A DNA stretch of 64,000 nucleotides from Gammaproteobacteria bacterium (GCA_018667355.1 JABIVC010000013.1:74305-138304), one strand, 5' to 3'. Shown: positions 50,493 through 59,800, numbered from the stretch's first letter. Notes: generated by a model not told the origin, from the letters alone. Numbers and translations: made by a program.

Positions 50493-51451
50493 TTTACTTA
50501 ACTCTAATATTTATATCTATAATATATTTTTTACTATTATATAAAAACTATGGTGAAAGCCTAAGATTAAAAAAAAATAGTATTAATATGAATATAATAT
50601 TCATTATTCTATTTTTTGGCATAGTAGGACTTTTTTTCAAAGACTCAGGGATATTAAATAAAAAGGGATATGATGAGATATTAGAAAAACATCAACAAAT
50701 TCGAAATAATATAGTTACCATTAAAGAGAATATACCTATACTTAGAGCAAAACTAATTGAAGAGCCTGAATATTATGAAGGTTGGGTTATGTTAGCAAAA
50801 TCTTATATAATTACAGATGATCTTTTATCATCTATAGACTCTTATGAGATGGCCATGTCGATAAATACAGATGACAATTCTGTTTTAATAGAGTACATAG
50901 ATATTTTAAGAAAAATTGACCCTAAGTCGAATAAGACTAAAATAATTAAAAGTTTTGATAAACTGATTTCATCAAATCCATCTGATATTGGTATTTATAA
51001 TATGAAGTTAAACTATTCTGTCGAAATTAATGATTCTAATCTGACCAAGAATATCTTACAAGATATTATAAACGATAAATCAATTATAAATAAAGATGCA
51101 TATATTCAGGCATTAAATAAACTAAATTTATCAGCAAATAAATTCTCTTTTGAAATAACACTTTCTGACAAGATATTTAATGACTTAAGATCATCATCAT
51201 ATATTTATTTTATTTTAAGAGATAAAATTATAGGGCCACCTTTTGCTGTAAAAAGAATTCAAAATATTAACTTAGGTAAGAAAATAACTCTAACATCCCA
51301 AGATAAGATGATCAGAGAATTAGAGCCCCCTGAAAATATTATATTAGAGATTAAAGGGAGTCAGAATAACGTTGTAGATGATAATATGGTGGAGCTTCAT
51401 AAGTCTAAAATATTAGACTTTCATTCTAGTGTCTATTATGAAATTGATTAG
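50489..51451 (+). CDS. ccmI: cytochrome c-type biogenesis protein CcmI-like (TM plus TPR-like)
   Basis: Position after ccmH with an ATGA start/stop overlap; N-terminal TM helix. Weak sequence signal. Confidence 0.45.
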   Translation: MIYLTLIFISIIYFLLLYKNYGESLRLKKNSINMNIIFIILFFGIVGLFFKDSGILNKKGYDEILEKHQQIRNNIVTIKENIPILRAKLIEEPEYYEGWVMLAKSYIITDDLLSSIDSYEMAMSINTDDNSVLIEYIDILRKIDPKSNKTKIIKSFDKLISSNPSDIGIYNMKLNYSVEINDSNLTKNILQDIINDKSIINKDAYIQALNKLNLSANKFSFEITLSDKIFNDLRSSSYIYFILRDKIIGPPFAVKRIQNINLGKKITLTSQDKMIRELEPPENIILEIKGSQNNVVDDNMVELHKSKILDFHSSVYYEID

Positions 51452-52146
51452 TAAGTAATTCTATCATCAAAAACAAAGCAGTCACCCTCCCATCTACCCT
51501 TATCTTTATTTTTATCTAAATAATTAATTATACCTCCTTTAAGCTGAAAAACATTTTTAAAGCCTAATTTATCTAAAGCTATACTGGCTTTTTCACATCT
51601 AATTCCACCCGTGCAAAATATAGCAATATCTTTTTCTTTATCTAAGTCTTTAGCCTCTTTGAGTGACTTATTCAAATCACTAAAATTTAAAAGATCCAGA
51701 CTTTTTGAATTTTTAAAAGTACCCATTAAATATTCAAATCTATTTCTCATATCAATTATAATAGGTTCACGCCCTAGCAGTTTGTCCCAATCATCTGGCT
51801 CTAACGATTTATTCTTAAATACTTTTTCTTCAGTAGCAGAAAATCCTGCCTTTATGATCTCATCTTTTACTTTTACTTTTAGTTTTGTAAATACTTTTTC
51901 CTTAATCATCGATTCATTAAAATGTATATTTCCTAAATCTAATAACCCAATGATATAGCTTTTGACTAGTTCTATATTTTTAGATGACCCACACATATTT
52001 GCATTAATACCCTCATTAGCAATAAGCACTGTTCCTAATATATTTAACTCTTTCAAATAATTAAATATGTCAAATCTGATTCTATCGGTATCATTAATTT
52101 TTATAAATTTATAAAAACTAACCACTCTATCTATTTTTTCATGCAT
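51448..52146 (-). CDS. trhO: tRNA uridine(34) hydroxylase TrhO (YceA/UPF0176, rhodanese-like)
   Basis: YceA-type architecture: an N-terminal region then a rhodanese domain with FCTGGIRCEKAS. Confidence 0.75.
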   Translation of the reverse strand: MHEKIDRVVSFYKFIKINDTDRIRFDIFNYLKELNILGTVLIANEGINANMCGSSKNIELVKSYIIGLLDLGNIHFNESMIKEKVFTKLKVKVKDEIIKAGFSATEEKVFKNKSLEPDDWDKLLGREPIIIDMRNRFEYLMGTFKNSKSLDLLNFSDLNKSLKEAKDLDKEKDIAIFCTGGIRCEKASIALDKLGFKNVFQLKGGIINYLDKNKDKGRWEGDCFVFDDRITY

Positions 52147-52799
52147 AATGTCATCCCATCATAAATTGTTATAAGACAATGACTCACTCTTTGGTCTTTA
52201 GATATAAAGCTATTAAGCGATTTGATAGATTTAGTGCTAGAGGAATTGTCATCTTTGTCTAAAACCTTCCCTTTCCAAATTGTATTATCTATAATAATTA
52301 TTCCACCCGACCTAACTAGCTTAAGAGATTTTTCATAATAGTCTAAATATCTACTTTTGTCAGCATCTATGAACACAAAATCAAATGAATTCTCATGGTT
52401 ATTCGTAATAAAACCATTTAGGGTGTCAATTGCATTACCTAATATCAGCTCAATTTTATTAGTAAGATTAGCTTTATCCCAATATTTCTTTGCGATATCC
52501 GTAAACTCTTTAGATTTTTCTAAAGCAAATAATTTTCCGTTTTCAGGCATAGCACTTGCAATACAAATAGAACTATACCCAGTAAAAACTCCTATTTCAA
52601 TACACCTAGTAAATTTACCTAGCTTAATAATCATCTCTATCAATGCACCTTGCGTTGCTCCAATTTGCATTATTGAGACATCACCAAGTTTTGCCGTTTC
52701 GTCACGGAGCTCTTTTAGAATGTTTGATTCTTTATAACCAATTGAATCTATATACTTACATAACTGATTTGGGTCTAGCTGAGTATCTTTGTTTTTCAT
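52131..52799 (-). CDS. class I SAM-dependent O-methyltransferase (family 3, caffeoyl-CoA OMT / TrmR(YrrM)-like)
   Basis: 222 aa; IEIGVFTGYSSICIA SAM motif. Overlaps trhO by 16 nt. Confidence 0.7.
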   Translation of the reverse strand: MKNKDTQLDPNQLCKYIDSIGYKESNILKELRDETAKLGDVSIMQIGATQGALIEMIIKLGKFTRCIEIGVFTGYSSICIASAMPENGKLFALEKSKEFTDIAKKYWDKANLTNKIELILGNAIDTLNGFITNNHENSFDFVFIDADKSRYLDYYEKSLKLVRSGGIIIIDNTIWKGKVLDKDDNSSSTKSIKSLNSFISKDQRVSHCLITIYDGMTLCMKK

Positions 52800-53384
52800 C
52801 TATTGTTTAATTGCTTCAAACTCAATGATTAAATCTATTTGGTTGCCAACACCATTCTCTCCAACGGCATAATCCATCCCAAAGTCTGAACGGTTAAAAC
52901 TTGCTGTTGCAGATACACCCATGACTATTGGCTTAGTAAAACCAAAAGGATATTCTTTGATTTTATTGACAGTGGTATTTAAAATAATTTCTCTCGATAT
53001 ACCTAGCAATGTTAATCTACCTGTAATTTTACCAGGATTTTTATTCAGATCATTATGCTTCGCTTTAAAAGTCATTACAGGAAAACGCTCTACATCAAGA
53101 AAATCTGGACTTCTTAAATGTGCATCTCTTTTTTCATGATTGGTAAATACACTGGATGTATCAATAAAAATTTCTACATTAGAAAGTAATTTCTTATCTT
53201 GATCATAAATAAATGAACCATTGACTTTTTTGAACATACCAAGTGTTTTTGCATAACCAGCATGTTCTACCAAAAAACCTAAGCTAAAATGAGACTCATC
53301 AATCACATAATCGGCATCTTTAGCAATCACTAGTTGTGTGAAACAAATACCTATAATAAAACTTAATGCTCTATATATATTCAT
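52800..53384 (-). CDS. yceI: YceI-family periplasmic (polyisoprenoid-binding) protein
   Basis: Signal peptide plus YceI-like lipocalin-type core (FSLGFLVEH, TLLGIS). Confidence 0.75.
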   Translation of the reverse strand: MNIYRALSFIIGICFTQLVIAKDADYVIDESHFSLGFLVEHAGYAKTLGMFKKVNGSFIYDQDKKLLSNVEIFIDTSSVFTNHEKRDAHLRSPDFLDVERFPVMTFKAKHNDLNKNPGKITGRLTLLGISREIILNTTVNKIKEYPFGFTKPIVMGVSATASFNRSDFGMDYAVGENGVGNQIDLIIEFEAIKQ

Positions 53385-54099
53385 CTTCTTTTCTCATATA
53401 TAACCAAAGTATATCCTTTGCAAAAGAAAAAGTAATGACAAATAATGATATCATTACAAAAAAAACCAATAAAGTATCTTTTACATATTGACTATGACAA
53501 AATATAAGTATGAATGTTGATAATACACAGCTAAGCTTTCTATAATAACTCCTAGGAAGTTTTCGTTTCATCCATTTATATTTCATCATAAATACTAGGA
53601 ATATATATCTATAAAAGGGTATCAAAAAAACTATAACACTTGTGTCTTTATTCAAGTATAAAGAAGTACAAAGAGTTAGGATTAACAAAGTATCAGCATC
53701 TTGATCAAAAACCTCTCCAAAATTACATTGTTCATTGAATCTCCTGGCCAGATACCCATCTATACCATCAAGACATAGAGCTATCAAAGCTAATATGGCA
53801 AAATAGTCCTCGAGATAGAATTTATTAAAAATATTTTGATCTGTTAGAGCATTAAATGATATAGATAAGAGAATTATTGATATCACTATCCTCAAGTAAG
53901 TTATGAAAGATGCATATGCAAATATATTTTCTTTAAAGTAATTAAATATATAAAATATAAGAATTGAAATAATTAAAAATATTACTGTATTTTGTAGTAC
54001 TATTAACAGTGTTAGGTCATTATATAAAATAACACCAAGCAATGTTATTAGGGCTAGATATGCTTTCAAAGTAGTTTTTAGTACGAATACATTAATCAT
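53371..54099 (-). CDS. CDP-alcohol phosphatidyltransferase family membrane protein
   Basis: DGIDGYLARR...G...DQDADTL matches the D-G-x2-A-R-x8-G-x3-D-x3-D signature; polytopic. Confidence 0.7.
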   Translation of the reverse strand: MINVFVLKTTLKAYLALITLLGVILYNDLTLLIVLQNTVIFLIISILIFYIFNYFKENIFAYASFITYLRIVISIILLSISFNALTDQNIFNKFYLEDYFAILALIALCLDGIDGYLARRFNEQCNFGEVFDQDADTLLILTLCTSLYLNKDTSVIVFLIPFYRYIFLVFMMKYKWMKRKLPRSYYRKLSCVLSTFILIFCHSQYVKDTLLVFFVMISLFVITFSFAKDILWLYMRKEDEYI

Positions 54100-54119: not shown

Positions 54120-55103
54120 ATGAAAAAAATAAACACACAATCATTCTGGATTAAGAAAAAAAATGATAGTTATATTAGAAATCATTCTATTAATATATCT
54201 AACAAAAGTGAACTATTAATTCAGACAATATATAGTGGTATAAGTTATGGAACCGAGAAGATTGTTTATACTGGAGCTGTCCCTGATAGTCAGAAAGAAC
54301 TAATGCGGTGCCCATATCAAGAGGGTAATTTCGGATCAGATGTTAAATATGGATATATGAATATAGGTAAAGTTATTGATGGAATCTCTAATTTCAAAGG
54401 CAAATATGTTTACACACTATTTCCTCATCAAACATTTTATATGTTAAATAAATCTGAGGTTACTTTAATCCCAAAAACAATCCCACTTAAAAGATGCTTG
54501 TTATCAGCTAACATGGAGACTGCAATAAATGGTATGTGGGACACACTACCATCATGTGGTGATAAAATCTTGGTTGTAGGTTCTGGTGTAGTTGGTTTCT
54601 TAATGGCGTATTTATTAAAATCTATACCTGGTTGTGAAATATTACTTGTCGATAGTGATTCAAAAAAAAGTAAATATTCAAAAATCTTTGATATTAATTT
54701 TAAGAATAAAATACCTAATAATTATAAAGCAAATATTATCTATGAGTGTTCAGGCAATGCAAATATCCTAAATAGCCTTAGCAAGCATGTAAAAGAAGAA
54801 GCTACTATTTGCATATTAAGCTGGTATGGAAATAATGTTTCTAAAGTGAAATTTGGAGAAGAATTTCTGTCAAAGAGAATTAAACTTATTTTTTCTCAGG
54901 TATCTAAAGTTTCACAAAATAGAAACAAATACTGGGATAATGTACAAAGAAGAGAGTTAGCAATTAGCATGCTAAATGATGATAGATTGGATAATTTGAT
55001 AGAAAGAAAAATGATAAAGTTCAATGAGCTTCCTGTATTTTTTTCTCAGATAAAGAAGGAGCAGGGCTTCTTCTGTAAAGTAGTAGATTATGGAGATAAC
55101 TGA
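54120..55103 (+). CDS. zinc-less medium-chain dehydrogenase/reductase, BchC-like
   Basis: SGISYGTEKIVYTG aligns to the BchC HSGISTGTEKLLWTG motif where zinc-ADHs have CGxCxxDxH. Rossmann VVGSGVVGFLMAYLL. Confidence 0.6.
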   Translation: MKKINTQSFWIKKKNDSYIRNHSINISNKSELLIQTIYSGISYGTEKIVYTGAVPDSQKELMRCPYQEGNFGSDVKYGYMNIGKVIDGISNFKGKYVYTLFPHQTFYMLNKSEVTLIPKTIPLKRCLLSANMETAINGMWDTLPSCGDKILVVGSGVVGFLMAYLLKSIPGCEILLVDSDSKKSKYSKIFDINFKNKIPNNYKANIIYECSGNANILNSLSKHVKEEATICILSWYGNNVSKVKFGEEFLSKRIKLIFSQVSKVSQNRNKYWDNVQRRELAISMLNDDRLDNLIERKMIKFNELPVFFSQIKKEQGFFCKVVDYGDN

Positions 55104-55105
55104 TT

Positions 55106-55504
55106 ATGTATGAAGTGACAGTAAGAGATAACTTGTTTATAGCACATAGTCTGCAAGATGATTTTTTCGGCCCAGCAAAAAATCTTCATGGAGCCACTTA
55201 TGTTATTGATTTAATATTAAGTAGTCGTGAAATGACTGATAAAAATGTTGTTATAGATATAGGGCTTGCATCCAACTTGCTGCACAAGTGCATTGAAGTC
55301 TATAATTATAAAAATTTAGATGACATAGATTCATTATCAGGAGTAATAACAACCACAGAATTTATGGCAAAGAAGCTAACTACTGACTTTATAAGTCTGT
55401 TAGAAAAAGAACAATTTGATATTTCTAGGCTTTATTCGATAAAGATGATTCTAAATGAGTCACATATAGCCTCAGCATCTTATGAACAAATAATTAATGA
55501 ATGA
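55106..55504 (+). CDS. PTPS/QueD-family T-fold protein with degenerate active site
   Basis: FIAHSL...NLHGATY aligns to QueD AAHRL...CGRLHGHSF. Third zinc His is Ala, and no catalytic Cys. Confidence 0.55.
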   Translation: MYEVTVRDNLFIAHSLQDDFFGPAKNLHGATYVIDLILSSREMTDKNVVIDIGLASNLLHKCIEVYNYKNLDDIDSLSGVITTTEFMAKKLTTDFISLLEKEQFDISRLYSIKMILNESHIASASYEQIINE

Positions 55505-56499
55505 GAAAAATCTATTTCATTTATCCTGAATTTGGAAACATTACTACTGGTGGAACACTATACGATTTCTATCTATGTAAATATTTAAAAAAAATATTTA
55601 TTTATCATCAGAGCATAACCGTCAATCATGATATATCAAATATTAAGATTTTTAGGAAAATTAAGAGCATTCCAAAAGATTCTATTATCATAATAGATGG
55701 GTATTTAGCAAATAGGATTAAATATCTTTTGAAAAAATATAATAATATCCATTTACTGGTTCATCACCCTTGTTCTCTAGAGGACCCTGCTGACACTACA
55801 TCCAGTCTTAGATTATTCTTCAATGAAAAAATTGCTTTTACTCATGCACAATCTATTACTACTGTAAGTAAATATATGAAATCAAGAATTAGTAGATATC
55901 TAAATAGAAGTTCTAAGATAAGTGTAGTTTATCCTGGTATTAGAGAGTGCTTCTTTAATTGTAAAACTGATGTTGAATCTATAGACATTCTTTCAATTGG
56001 AAACCTAATCCCAAGGAAAGGATTTGAGTGGTTAGTAGAATCATTAAGTAGATTAAATATTGATTGGCATTTAAACATCATAGGAAGTTATAGCATTGAT
56101 AACAACTATTATGAAAAGGTAACAAATCTAATTAGAAAGCATAAATTAGAGGATAAGATAACTTTTTTAGGAACAGTTGAAAAGAATGTTATGCTAGATT
56201 ATATGCAAAACTCCAAGCTATTTGTTCTTGCGACACATTATGAGGGTTTTGGTATGGCATTGCTTGAGTCTTCTATTTCTGGCCTCAAAGTTATTACTAC
56301 AGATTTACCAGTATTAAGAGAAGTTTTAAGAAATAGGGATGTTGATTTTGTTGAAGAGGATAATATTGACTCTTTAGCAAAATGTATAGAATATAATTTA
56401 AGCCATACTCATTCTTTGCCAATAACTTCTTGTACAGAAAAATATGGATGGAAGAGGGCCGCTAGAAACTTTAAGATGGTGTTATATGGAAAAAGATAA
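55501..56499 (+). CDS. glycosyltransferase family 4 (GT1-fold)
   Basis: HYEGFGMALLESSISGLKVITTD (E-x7-E motif). Confidence 0.75.
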   Translation: MRKIYFIYPEFGNITTGGTLYDFYLCKYLKKIFIYHQSITVNHDISNIKIFRKIKSIPKDSIIIIDGYLANRIKYLLKKYNNIHLLVHHPCSLEDPADTTSSLRLFFNEKIAFTHAQSITTVSKYMKSRISRYLNRSSKISVVYPGIRECFFNCKTDVESIDILSIGNLIPRKGFEWLVESLSRLNIDWHLNIIGSYSIDNNYYEKVTNLIRKHKLEDKITFLGTVEKNVMLDYMQNSKLFVLATHYEGFGMALLESSISGLKVITTDLPVLREVLRNRDVDFVEEDNIDSLAKCIEYNLSHTHSLPITSCTEKYGWKRAARNFKMVLYGKR

Positions 56500-57358
56500 A
56501 TTCTCGTTATCATGGATTAAGATGAGAGAAAAATATGATTTAAAATCTAGAAGTGATCTATTATTAAGGCAGTATAAAAAAGATAATTCATTCTTTAAAA
56601 AAATCATAGATTTAGGTTCTGGTAATGGTTCATTTCTGAGATATTGCCATACTAAGAAAATAATATTTGATGACATGACCCTGATCGATTATGACCCAAA
56701 GCTATTAAGAAACTTTTATACTACAACTTGTAAGTATTTAAAAAACTCTGGTTACAGTCTACTAAAAGAATTACCTACAAAATATAAATTAAAAAAAATG
56801 GATGAGACTAAAACCAGAAATATTAAACTAATCAACAATGATATTTCAAAGTCATTTGATATTATTGATAGTTATAATTTAATTAGTTTATCTGCTATGT
56901 CAGACATATTACCAATATCATTTATTAAAAAACTTTTGAATAATGTGAGTAAAAATAAAATTATATATCTATCAATATGTTTTAGTGGGACTGTTGATTG
57001 GCATATTAAACATAAATATGATAAATATATTGTGTCAATGTTTAATAATCATCAGGAGATGAATAAAGGTTCTGGCTATGCTATTGGTGCCAAGAGCATT
57101 AAGCTTATAAAAGGCCATAGTATTAAGAAACAATATAAGGTATCTATAAAAGATTCATCCTGGAAAATAAACTCTAATACTGAAGATGATAAAACTTTCC
57201 AAAGAATGTATTTAGATACTATATATAGGCCACTAAAAAAAGATGAAAATACTGATAAAGAAATGCTTCTGGATTGGAAAGAGGCGAAACTGAGAGCAAT
57301 TCAATCTGGCAGGTCTAAAATTATTGTAGGACATAAAGATATTTTGATTAAAACATAA
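56444..57358 (+). CDS. class I SAM-dependent methyltransferase
   Basis: IIDLGSGNGSFLRY motif I. The start is probably the internal Met near 56486. Confidence 0.55.
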   Translation: MDGRGPLETLRWCYMEKDKFSLSWIKMREKYDLKSRSDLLLRQYKKDNSFFKKIIDLGSGNGSFLRYCHTKKIIFDDMTLIDYDPKLLRNFYTTTCKYLKNSGYSLLKELPTKYKLKKMDETKTRNIKLINNDISKSFDIIDSYNLISLSAMSDILPISFIKKLLNNVSKNKIIYLSICFSGTVDWHIKHKYDKYIVSMFNNHQEMNKGSGYAIGAKSIKLIKGHSIKKQYKVSIKDSSWKINSNTEDDKTFQRMYLDTIYRPLKKDENTDKEMLLDWKEAKLRAIQSGRSKIIVGHKDILIKT

Positions 57359-58251
57359 TGAGCATCAGAGACGCCTTAAAATATCTTGCCTCTATTATAG
57401 TAATTTATTATATTATTAATGAGTTCGGTATCAATATATCTAATATTCTCTCTATCATTGACCCAAGATATATTTTATTAATTGTATTAGTAAGTATTTT
57501 TCAGCATATACTGTCAGCATACAGATGGATGTATATTTCTAAGGTAACTAATCTAAATATTAGCTTTAGCCATTCTATTCAATTTTATTATATTTCTACT
57601 TTCATGAATAATATTCTTCCTGGTGGAATAATGGGGGATATATTTCGTATATACTATACTTCTGAAAAGAAAAATGAAATACTCAAAATGGGTAAGTCAA
57701 TGCAGTCTGTTATTTTTGAGAGATTATCAGGCCAAATCATGTTACTTGCTTTCTTTGTTGTATCTTTAACTATATATTTTCTTATTAACCAAAAATATGA
57801 AGCTTTTCTCTACTTATTCTTTCCTTCAATATCAATATTCATTTTATTCAAATATTTTCTTAACCAAAAAATTAAAAAAATATTAGGTAAAAAACAAATT
57901 AGCCAAAATCTTTATATGGTTTTTACAGGGGAAATATTTTGGAGACATCTAACTCTCTCTTTTTTTGTTGTATGCTCTTATATACTCATATATATCATTT
58001 CAGCAGTTTCATTAGGTCTAAATATTGATTATCTTTCATTTTTAGTATTTTCTCCAATAATTCTTTTTTCAATGACTTTACCTATTAGTGTCGGGGGGTG
58101 GGGTATTAGAGAATTAACAGCACTTCTTTTATCTCTACTCTTGGGGCTTTCAGCTTCTGCAAGCATTAGTGTTTCAATTATTTATGGGATACTAAATTTA
58201 TTATGTTCGCTACCTGGGTTATATTTTTTCATGAAAATCAAATTAAATTAA
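57358..58251 (+). CDS. UPF0104 / lysylphosphatidylglycerol-synthase-TM-type (flippase-like) membrane protein
   Basis: Polytopic; NNILPGGIMGDIFRIYY motif. Its ATG overlaps the methyltransferase stop (ATAATG). Confidence 0.55.
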   Translation: MSIRDALKYLASIIVIYYIINEFGINISNILSIIDPRYILLIVLVSIFQHILSAYRWMYISKVTNLNISFSHSIQFYYISTFMNNILPGGIMGDIFRIYYTSEKKNEILKMGKSMQSVIFERLSGQIMLLAFFVVSLTIYFLINQKYEAFLYLFFPSISIFILFKYFLNQKIKKILGKKQISQNLYMVFTGEIFWRHLTLSFFVVCSYILIYIISAVSLGLNIDYLSFLVFSPIILFSMTLPISVGGWGIRELTALLLSLLLGLSASASISVSIIYGILNLLCSLPGLYFFMKIKLN

Positions 58252-59107
58252 TATCACATAGTATATCTGTGCCCATTATACTATATGTAATCTCATGCTG
58301 TTTAATCTCACTTAATGATTGTTTCTCTGGTAGTATGAAACTACTAATACCTTCACCTAATATTATTGGACTTATACATAAATATAATTTATTAATAAGA
58401 TTTTCTTGATAGAATTTAGAGATAGTCATTCCGCCACCTTCAATAAATATTATACTCTTATTCAACTTAGTCATAAGCGATATGATATCTTTCTCATCAA
58501 ACTGATTATTTACGAGAGGCAATTGAAATATATTTGTATTTCTTGATTTTAATTTGTCACTAATTATTTTATAACCTTTATCGTCTTCATTACTAAATAC
58601 ATTATATTTTTTGCTGAGTTTATTATCTTTGTCTATGATAATGCGCATAGGATTCTCTCCTTTGACAAGTCTTGTTGTAAGCATAGGATTATCAAATTGA
58701 ACAGTTTTATAGCCTACAATAATTATATCTGATATTGCCCTCAAGGCATGTATGTGAAAAAGATTTTCTTTCGAACTTATATATTTTGACTCTCCAGACT
58801 TTGTAGCAATAAGACCATCAAGAGTTTGAGCCAAATGAGCTATCACATAATTTTTTTGGTTATTAAATATAAGAGGAAGATACATTTTGAAGAGACTATG
58901 TCCATAATCATCAATTTCAAAATTACTGTCAATTATAACTTTTTTTTGAATGTCATACTCATATTTCAATATTTTTTTGTTTATTGATTTTTCTATATGA
59001 ATTTTTGATATTTCATCAGGACTCTTGGATTTAAAGTATTTTGCCGCTAAAATTAGTGACCATGCAGATTTTTTTGTTATACTTAATTTATTAGTTTTAT
59101 TATGCAT
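58238..59107 (-). CDS. RibD C-terminal-domain (DHFR-like) reductase with about 85-aa N-terminal extension
   Basis: YVIAHLAQTLDGLIATKSGESKYISS...LFHIHALRAISDIIIVGYKTV..DNPMLTTR. Confidence 0.65.
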   Translation of the reverse strand: MHNKTNKLSITKKSAWSLILAAKYFKSKSPDEISKIHIEKSINKKILKYEYDIQKKVIIDSNFEIDDYGHSLFKMYLPLIFNNQKNYVIAHLAQTLDGLIATKSGESKYISSKENLFHIHALRAISDIIIVGYKTVQFDNPMLTTRLVKGENPMRIIIDKDNKLSKKYNVFSNEDDKGYKIISDKLKSRNTNIFQLPLVNNQFDEKDIISLMTKLNKSIIFIEGGGMTISKFYQENLINKLYLCISPIILGEGISSFILPEKQSLSEIKQHEITYSIMGTDILCDINLI

Positions 59108-59350
59108 AATGTTATGGGTTATTTAAAAAGTACTATTATCAATATAATACATGGGGCACTAATTCTCATACCCGTTATAATATTTATTCATTTTACATAT
59201 CATTATTTTTCTAATTATAGCCCAATTCCTTCAATATATTATTTTTATGCTTCAATGGAATTAGGCCCTTTATATTTAGTTATAAACTTTTATATCACTG
59301 GTATATTAGGAAGATTCTTCAGCCAGAATCTTAGTTTTAATAACTTATAG
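59102..59350 (+). CDS. possible small membrane protein (82 aa, two hydrophobic segments)
   Basis: ORF fills the 237-bp gap between two minus-strand genes. No homology signal; could be spurious. Confidence 0.2.
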   Translation: MHNVMGYLKSTIINIIHGALILIPVIIFIHFTYHYFSNYSPIPSIYYFYASMELGPLYLVINFYITGILGRFFSQNLSFNNL

Positions 59351-59800
59351 TATAGTAGGGTTTGGAGCATCTCCATATACTTCGTCTGGATCGAATACTT
59401 TTTCTTTTTCAGTAAATGTTAGTTTTGCTTTTTTACCATCATATGATATCTCCCGATAGAAGCATGAGAAATAGCCAACATGACAACTAGCATTTCCAGC
59501 AACAGTCACTTTAATCCATATGCAATCTTGATCATCATCTATTAGTATATTATCAACTTTTTGTACAAATCCACTGGTGGCACCCTTATGCCATATACAT
59601 TTTCTGCTTCTACTATAGTAATGAGCTTCACCTTTTTCAATTGTGAGCGTTAGTGCTTCTGCATTCATAAATGCATGCATTAATAAGACCCCAGATTTAC
59701 TATCAGTTGTAACTACTGGTATAAAGCCATCAGAGTTGAACTTTGGACTAAGGCTAGTCCCTTCTTCTACCTCTTTGACTGATATTCTCTCTTCAAACAT
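59345..59800 (-). CDS. hisI: phosphoribosyl-AMP cyclohydrolase (stand-alone HisI domain)
   Basis: DGFIPVVTTD..GVLLMHAFMNAEAL...YYSRSRK.IWHKGATSG...D.D.DCIW..V...G.ASCHVGYFSCF; no HisE domain. Confidence 0.75.
   Translation of the reverse strand: MFEERISVKEVEEGTSLSPKFNSDGFIPVVTTDSKSGVLLMHAFMNAEALTLTIEKGEAHYYSRSRKCIWHKGATSGFVQKVDNILIDDDQDCIWIKVTVAGNASCHVGYFSCFYREISYDGKKAKLTFTEKEKVFDPDEVYGDAPNPTIL

Follow-up and report, generated by a model that had tools for sequence, protein, structure and literature searches.

Overall, we conclude that the short open reading frame (ORF) described here almost certainly encodes a member of the PTPS-IV class, an orthologue-level relative of SCO6650 from Streptomyces coelicolor. 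It lies in a 64,000-nucleotide stretch of DNA from Gammaproteobacteria bacterium (GCA_018667355.1 JABIVC010000013.1:74305-138304), which we call the window and in which positions are counted from the first letter, and it adds a member from a marine gammaproteobacterial metagenome-assembled genome (MAG) to a class that is known and functionally unsolved. The crystal structure of PTPS-IV dates from 2008 and its name from 2012, and the substitutions that set the protein apart from canonical enzymes are those of an already named and crystallised class rather than a new discovery. The gene cluster around it appears to make a GTP-derived, sugar-decorated and probably membrane-bound compound, and the explanation that we favour overall, and regard as moderately probable, is that PTPS-IV acts on a pterin-like intermediate of such a GTP-derived pathway.

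The product of the ORF is a genuine PTPS/QueD-fold protein. The reading frame opens with an ATG at 55106, with a GGAGA box about 10 nt 5' of it, and closes with a TGA at 55502-55504 that shares the sequence ATGA with the start of the following glycosyltransferase gene. PF01242 (PTPS) matches across the entire ORF (E=3.5e-15, 56.5 bits against a cut-off of 22.4), and the AlphaFold2 (AF2) model, with a mean predicted local distance difference test (pLDDT) score of 86.7 and a predicted template-modelling score (pTM) of 0.82, has the E-E-H-H-E-E topology of a T-fold and is least confident in the active-site loop, residues 11-30. The translation carries, in order, the motifs IAHS (14-15), FGPAK (21-25), LHGAT (27-31), DIG (51-53), YNYKNLD (66-72), TTTE (82-85) and ESH (118-120).

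The best solved relative is SCO6650 (PDB 3D7J), found by phmmer over residues 1-129 with E=3.5e-27. With the family profile the same structure is matched over its full length at E=1.2e-55, as against 1e-9 to 1e-3 for canonical PTPS and QueD structures, and Foldseek likewise ranks 3d7j first for the AF2 model with a template-modelling (TM) score of 0.88, followed by QueD and PTPS at about 0.70 and by FolB, FolX and GTP cyclohydrolase I at about 0.5. The two proteins are about 45% identical in full-length alignment (39% in the Foldseek structural alignment) and share IAHS, FGPA(Q/K), LHGAT, DIG, Y.NLD, TTE and ESH; the difference that we note within these motifs is Lys25 in the window protein, where Gln is usual. 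SCO6650 is reportedly a T-fold hexamer that lacks zinc and keeps the pterin-binding residues. Every feature of PTPS-IV for which we looked was found, namely the signature, SCO6650 as the nearest relative and a RibD_C neighbour. As to the signature, a passage of PMC5445326, citing Phillips 2012 and Zallot 2016, calls FGPAQ typical of PTPS-IV, and FGPAK fits that type.

The window protein and its relatives are publicly annotated as '6-carboxytetrahydropterin synthase'. This name is probably a mis-annotation, because the QueD and general PTPS models score far under their cut-offs: the NCBIfam QueD model TIGR03367 gives 32.7 bits against 89.25, and the 6PTHBS model 25.2 bits against 125.5. The genomic setting points the same way, with no queC, queE, queF or folE within 10 kb on either side of the gene and no fol genes in its neighbourhood.

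The residue equivalences are best followed in a profile alignment. A 35-sequence family profile was aligned by hhalign to the presumed sequence of E. coli QueD (Prob 96.5%, E=9e-10). H14 and H28 fall on H16 and H31, the first two zinc His, and E118 falls on E110, so the pterin-anchoring Glu is retained. Conversely, A24 stands at the catalytic C27, A30 at the third zinc His, H33, and N67/Y68 at the Asp-His dyad D70/H71. A hidden Markov model (HMM) alignment to rat PTPS 1b66, made by hmmsearch with the family profile, agrees independently, setting FGPAQ..LHGATY opposite FGKCNNPNGHGHNY and LNYKNLD opposite LDHKNLD. The sole Cys of the window protein, Cys62 in helix 52-64, is not aligned to the catalytic Cys of QueD or of rat PTPS, and neither another His-x-His nor a Glu at the motif position is found in the sequence and the QueD alignment, while the pterin-binding TTTE at 82-85 is present together with Glu118, and it is with these residues that PTPS and QueD grip the 2-amino-4-oxopyrimidine face of a pterin.

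An earlier note, made from the sequence by eye, had claimed that the first zinc His is kept, that the third is Ala, that the catalytic Cys is missing and that the DHH region is replaced by YNYKNL. The profile alignments bear out each of these residues and indicate that the Cys, His and Glu are not merely shifted; the note's 'one or two' zinc ligands was right as to the loss and can be narrowed to exactly two of three, H14 and H28. Its conclusion that the protein is unlikely to be a canonical PTPS or QueD also stands, with the QueD score under the cut-off and the Cys, third His and dyad gone. Its suggestion of a FolB/FolX-like function finds no support, given the missing ExxHGH, the remote DHNA/FolX structures and the lack of folate genes nearby. 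The subfamily comparison that it proposed leads to PTPS-IV, which has the same substitutions and no known activity; the note was correct that the substitutions are real and had missed that they belong to a recognised subfamily.

Comparison with the other T-fold classes leads to the same place. The protein shares with QueD/PTPS-I (E. coli 4NTK) a T-fold monomer of about 120-130 aa, the first two zinc His, the pterin-anchoring Glu and the T-x-E region, and departs from it in having Ala for Cys27, Ala for His33 and Asn-Tyr for Asp70-His71, so that neither CxxxHGH nor the dyad is there, as well as in its TM score of only about 0.70 and its lack of a queC, queE and folE context. The motif register of PTPS-II (rat 1B66, human 3I2B) can be read straight across, as FGKCN/FGPAQ, HGHNY/HGATY, HKNLD/YKNLD and TTE/TTE, yet CxxxxxHGH is absent, the Cys42/Asp88/His89 triad and the zinc ligand His50 are all replaced (Ala, Ala and Asn-Tyr in alignment with rat 1b66), and where PTPS-II pairs with sepiapterin reductase the partner of PTPS-IV is an MDR-family dehydrogenase. 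PTPS-III and FolB/FolX have in common with the window protein the T-fold and a pocket for a pterin-type ligand; they differ in that ExxHGH is replaced by AKNLHGA and folate genes are absent, and DHNA and FolX are remote in structure (TM about 0.5, E>7e-4).

These substitutions are not peculiar to one genome. A word-indexed search returned 762 homologues and an exhaustive search of 50%-identity representatives 856, and conservation was read from 35 full-length representatives with 34-64% identity to the query. Residues H14, S15, F21, G22, A24, H28, G29, T31, D51, L71, D72, E118 and A122 are invariant in all 35; A30 and P23 are each found in 34 of the 35, and position 25 is Gln in 27 and Lys, as in the window protein, in two. 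None of the 269 collected homologues contains CxxxHGH, CxxxxxHGH or ExxHGH. Because the same residues are invariant among distant representatives, the substitutions point to constraint and not decay, and on the evidence of these alignments the replacement of the Cys, the His and the dyad is a property of the family rather than the result of chance. Some relatives have gone further in architecture: P0123, P0125, P0129, P0135 and P0156, from high-GC and probably algal sources, each have three PTPS-IV domains in tandem on one chain, an arrangement that would make a covalent pseudo-trimer of the T-fold, and the FGPAQ motif is lost from the middle copy.

The window has a GC content of 31% and is identical to contigs of marine Gammaproteobacteria MAGs. 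Here the PTPS-IV gene comes second in a compact run of five plus-strand genes, to which it is translationally coupled, and further genes on the minus strand flank the run (Table 1). The upstream partner is a zinc-less dehydrogenase (AF2 pLDDT 93.1) that reads GISYGTE at the catalytic-zinc Cys motif, the Cys being lost, and keeps a GSGVVG NAD(P) site of the GxGxxG type. Its nearest PDB structures are L-idonate 5-dehydrogenase, the TarJ ribulose-5-P reductase, and sorbitol and xylitol dehydrogenases, and the Pfam ADH_zinc_N match is weak and under the cut-off; matches to HcgC and to the NCBIfam BchC model also lay under threshold and were dropped as functional clues. The dehydrogenase and PTPS-IV are thus both descended from zinc enzymes and both probably zinc-less. 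The start of the methyltransferase gene is ambiguous, since 56444 gives 304 aa and a 56 nt overlap with the glycosyltransferase gene, and 56486, used in the public MAG gene calls, gives 290 aa; orthologues in Streptomyces and Marinobacter match Methyltransf_25. The RibD_C paralogue lacks a deaminase domain and is extended by about 85 aa at the N-terminus, and its nearest PDB structures are RibD reductase domains and the archaeal and yeast 2,5-diamino-6-ribosylamino-4(3H)-pyrimidinone 5'-phosphate reductases. The motif D-x2-DG-x2-AR-x8-G-x3-D-x3-D, read from the translation, is intact in the CDP-alcohol phosphatidyltransferase, which reaches 41.7 bits against a cut-off of 109 with the pgsA model and belongs to a non-PgsA, non-PssA subfamily. 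The YceI-like protein is a possible accessory member of the cluster. A scan for promoters and terminators was uninformative at this GC content, giving 64 sites where 57.5 were expected.

Table 1. The PTPS-IV gene, its neighbours in the window, and sulfatase-family genes beside the cluster in other genomes (locus handles given).
Feature	Position	Strand	Remarks
YceI-like protein (polyisoprenoid/lipid-binding, secreted)	52800..53384	-	Pfam YceI E=2.4e-37; overlaps end of CDP-alcohol transferase gene
CDP-alcohol phosphatidyltransferase	53371..54099	-	PF01066 E=6.3e-16; divergent, 20 bp from dehydrogenase start
Zinc-less MDR-family dehydrogenase, polyol type	54120..55103	+	327 aa; AF2/Foldseek; ends 2 nt before PTPS-IV start
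PTPS-IV (SCO6650-type) T-fold protein	55106..55504	+	132 aa; PF01242, 3d7j match, AF2 model
GT4-family glycosyltransferase	55501..56499	+	Pfam Glycos_transf_1 E=9e-27; start overlaps PTPS-IV stop
Class-I methyltransferase-like protein, cluster-specific	56444 (or 56486)..57358	+	weak Methyltransf_23 match
Flippase-like membrane protein (LPG_synthase_TM)	57358..58251	+	PF03706 E=3.6e-36; TIGR00374 above cut-off
Stand-alone RibD_C pyrimidine (ribosylamino) reductase paralogue	58238..59107	-	Pfam RibD_C E=3.8e-33; convergent with operon
Sulfatase-family membrane protein	L013 10384-12093; L030 16955-18625; L020 6665-8224; L042 5869-7590		beside cluster in other genomes

The earlier note had called this operon unusual, and indeed it is both unusual and conserved across phyla. 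We scanned one genome per species with two peptide patterns derived from an 8-sequence alignment, which yielded 594 confirmed loci, and examined the best 80 by tblastn. They come from Bacteroidota, Alpha-, Beta- and Gammaproteobacteria, Streptomyces and other Actinomycetota, Acidobacteriota, Gemmatimonadota, Myxococcota, a Brocadiaceae MAG and a SAR11 single-cell genome, and the cluster is conserved in at least eight phyla. Its composition was counted by blastp of proteins from the window and from other loci against the ORFs of the 57 loci of at least 18 kb, the ORFs in high-GC loci being called mechanically and including spurious antisense ones. The dehydrogenase lies directly upstream of PTPS-IV in 56 of the 57 loci and the GT4 gene directly downstream in 53; the methyltransferase is present in 49, RibD_C in 33, and RibD_C or GTP cyclohydrolase II in 51. 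A CDP-alcohol transferase in the same position and orientation is found in 42 loci, a flippase-like protein, or else a Wzx-like MOP flippase, in 30, and a creatininase-family hydrolase, weakly ArfB-like at 39 bits, in 27. Outside Streptomyces, where 39 loci were counted, YceI stands at the same position in seven, including those of Marinobacter, Variovorax, Pseudorhodoferax and Salinicola, and a sulfatase-family (LtaS/OpgB/EptA-like) membrane protein of 520-570 aa is present in 20. The sulfatase-family gene of L030 abuts a gene for the periplasmic-glucan protein MdoG.

Individual loci illustrate how the parts are recombined. In Streptomyces the Pfam assignments are CDP-OH, ADH, PTPS-IV, GT4, methyltransferase, flippase-like protein, creatininase and GTP cyclohydrolase II; in Flavobacterium piscinae the operon runs GTP cyclohydrolase II, CDP-OH, GT4, a PEMT-type membrane methyltransferase, two methyltransferases, a Wzx-like flippase, RibD_C, ADH, PTPS-IV and a sulfatase-like gene; and an acidobacterial locus has the full gene set, adjoining MdoG. 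Thus the Streptomyces and window neighbourhoods have in common the CDP-alcohol transferase, dehydrogenase, GT4, methyltransferase and flippase-like protein around PTPS-IV, and differ in that the window has RibD_C and YceI and lacks the creatininase and Met-type GTP cyclohydrolase II by which the cluster is flanked in Streptomyces. Functional links among the cluster genes are reinforced by fusions: PTPS-IV with GT4 in P0266, GT4 with the methyltransferase in Marinobacter (L063, 652 aa), and three PTPS-IV domains with a C-terminal methyltransferase domain of the cluster type in P0135 (hmmsearch E=1.8e-11). The cluster cyclohydrolase itself varies. Most of the Streptomyces loci compared, L061 (14670-15425) and 20 others, have Met where Tyr105 stands in E. 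coli RibA, with the creatininase-family gene alongside; the residue is Leu in one Streptomyces locus, His in two other actinomycetotal loci and Tyr in all other phyla. We take this Met to be the switch by which SCO6655 releases the formylated product, FAPy. Some copies of the cyclohydrolase carry an N-terminal extension of about 180 aa (L030, 378 aa, with no DHBP-synthase domain). A neighbourhood of PTPS-IV, PF01872 and PF00925 is also reported in a passage of PMC5445326.

From this gene content a general pathway can be sketched. GTP would be the starting point, its ring opened by GTP cyclohydrolase II, with an added deformylase step in Streptomyces, where the cyclohydrolase is of the Met type and the creatininase is deformylase-like. 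The stand-alone RibD_C would then reduce the ribosylamino group, giving 2,5-diamino-6-ribitylamino-4(3H)-pyrimidinone 5'-phosphate, and since this paralogue lacks the deaminase the 2-amino group would be kept; the retained 2-amino-4-oxopyrimidine, with its guanine-like face, is what the pockets of PTPS-family proteins bind. The MDR dehydrogenase may oxidise a secondary hydroxyl on the ribityl-phosphate chain, and PTPS-IV would bind the resulting pterin-like intermediate and act on it without zinc or a thiol, most plausibly by closing a ring or by isomerising it, to give a pteridine-type product that GT4 would glycosylate and the methyltransferase methylate. We consider the chances of the general pathway role evenly balanced, and the specific chemistry proposed for PTPS-IV decidedly unlikely to be right as drawn.

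In the window's genome the product would serve as a phospholipid head group, or be attached to one, and then be moved across the membrane. The gene content suggests that it is or becomes an exported membrane-lipid head group, because a dedicated CDP-alcohol phosphatidyltransferase is present together with either of two unrelated and interchangeable flippase types, and because there is a PEMT-type methyltransferase in Flavobacterium, YceI in several proteobacterial loci and an LtaS/OpgB-like transferase in many. The logic resembles that of phosphatidylinositol and the phosphatidylinositol mannosides (PIM), where a PgsA1-type CDP-alcohol transferase works with the GT4 enzyme PimA; the cluster likewise has a CDP-alcohol transferase, a GT4 and a flippase, an analogy drawn from gene content. 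Both have enzymes able to make a polyol-phosphate, a prediction in the case of the cluster, and they differ in that the PIM head group arises by way of inositol-phosphate synthase whereas the cluster has GTP cyclohydrolase II, RibD_C, the MDR dehydrogenase and PTPS-IV instead. The sulfatase-family membrane transferase in the clusters of other genomes can similarly be likened to head-group transfer of the OpgB/LtaS/EptA type. In its fullest form the proposal makes PTPS-IV the hallmark of an undescribed pathway of many phyla, in which a GTP-derived, pteridine-like polyol phosphate would become, by way of the dedicated CDP-alcohol phosphatidyltransferase, a glycosylated and methylated new phospholipid head group, be flipped, and often be passed by an OpgB/LtaS-like enzyme to an envelope polymer; this extension we put forward tentatively, as a doubtful reading. 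We know of no described GTP-derived lipid of this kind.

At the same time, several points weigh against the pathway as we favour it. The step order, the dehydrogenase substrate and the lipid link all come from gene content only, and ring closure to a neopterin-like product would duplicate FolE. GTP cyclohydrolase II, creatininase and sulfatase-family genes are absent from the window, so that the case for a GTP origin there comes from the neighbouring RibD_C gene and from other genomes. The sample of loci is biased to Streptomyces and to members containing HGATYVVD, and Bacteroidota loci are often without a nearby CDP-alcohol transferase or flippase, in view of which the lipid part of the pathway may be an add-on. 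SCO6650 is said to be without PTPS activity, and a full-text search of the accessible literature found no biochemical activity reported for any PTPS-IV.

A different view of the protein is that of a non-catalytic T-fold scaffold in which catalysis was lost with the zinc site and which binds, presents or channels a pterin-like intermediate to the dehydrogenase and GT4. All known catalytic residues are gone, the active-site loop is the least confident part of the model, PTPS-IV has close links to GT4 and the dehydrogenase through fusion or tight coupling, and the algal-like triple repeats have a middle copy even without FGPAQ. Nonetheless, the invariance of H14, S15, H28, T31, D51, D72 and E118 over wide distances is more constraint than simple binding usually needs, and the conservation of Ala24 in 35 and Ala30 in 34 of the 35 representatives suggests a pocket that is reshaped rather than dead, so that we think a mere scaffold unlikely.

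Very unlikely, in our view, is a role in archaeal-type riboflavin or F420 precursor synthesis, for example as the missing step after GTP cyclohydrolase, deformylase and reductase. This idea goes back to a statement in PMC5041015, which that passage presents as an unpublished remark, and the cluster does adjoin GTP cyclohydrolase II, the weakly ArfB-like creatininase-family protein and RibD_C, the same neighbours as in the passage of PMC5445326. However, the accessible literature contains no published data for the claim, the loci inspected contain no F420 gene, and the dehydrogenase, GT4, methyltransferase, CDP-alcohol transferase and flippases have no place in FO/F420 or riboflavin synthesis. 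Moreover, the family is present in SAR86-like, SAR11, Marinobacter, Flavobacterium and Rhizobium lineages, which to our knowledge are not F420 producers.

Finally, the Pfam PTPS domain, the automatic NCBI and JGI names and the reported tolerance of PTPS-I for a translated Cys position might suggest a QueD, PTPS or FolB-replacing (PTPS-III-like) enzyme, canonical or promiscuous, in which the catalytic residues have only changed place in the sequence. This is so improbable that such a role is excluded for practical purposes by the motifs (only the off-position Cys62, and no canonical motif among the homologues), the sub-threshold QueD and 6PTHBS scores, the ranking of SCO6650 above QueD in structure and a context free of que and fol genes.

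Regardless of the specific chemistry of PTPS-IV, two consequences follow from its assignment and context. The name '6-carboxytetrahydropterin synthase' is almost certainly wrong for this protein and hundreds of relatives, and in abundant marine bacteria it would lead astray any reconstruction of queuosine, folate and biopterin metabolism. The cluster context, with its obligate zinc-less dehydrogenase, its GT4, methyltransferase, CDP-alcohol transferase, flippases and LtaS/OpgB-like transferase, and its feeder enzymes, provides a testable frame for PTPS-IV function, and it is in that unsolved function and in the wider cluster, chiefly its lipid and envelope components, that the interest lies. 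If the compound is indeed a GTP-derived constituent of the membrane or envelope, it would represent a new class of bacterial lipid head group, distributed from Streptomyces to streamlined ocean plankton.

A few further genes border the cluster in the window. A canonical stand-alone HisI at 59345-59800 (minus strand) adjoins RibD_C; it was considered as an alternative cyclohydrolase and rejected, since it passes the canonical HisI equivalog cut-off. Beyond it lie a 59-aa zf-CHCC protein and a MOSC-domain protein, and then MoeB/ThiF, MoaA, MoaD and MoaE (L001 14698-19734). Molybdopterin genes were not seen beside the cluster in other phyla, and the adjacency of this second GTP-to-pterin pathway is probably coincidental. 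On the other side, within 51448-52799 on the minus strand, an O-methyltransferase gene (Methyltransf_3, Pfam E=1.4e-68) is overlapped by the gene immediately downstream of it, which encodes the tRNA uridine(34) hydroxylase TrhO (NF001133, 233.6 bits; cut-off 170); YceI and the CDP-alcohol transferase belong to the same close-set run of minus-strand genes. The pair resembles the TrhO/TrmR (mo5U34) couple of Bacillus, and would be unusual for a gammaproteobacterium.

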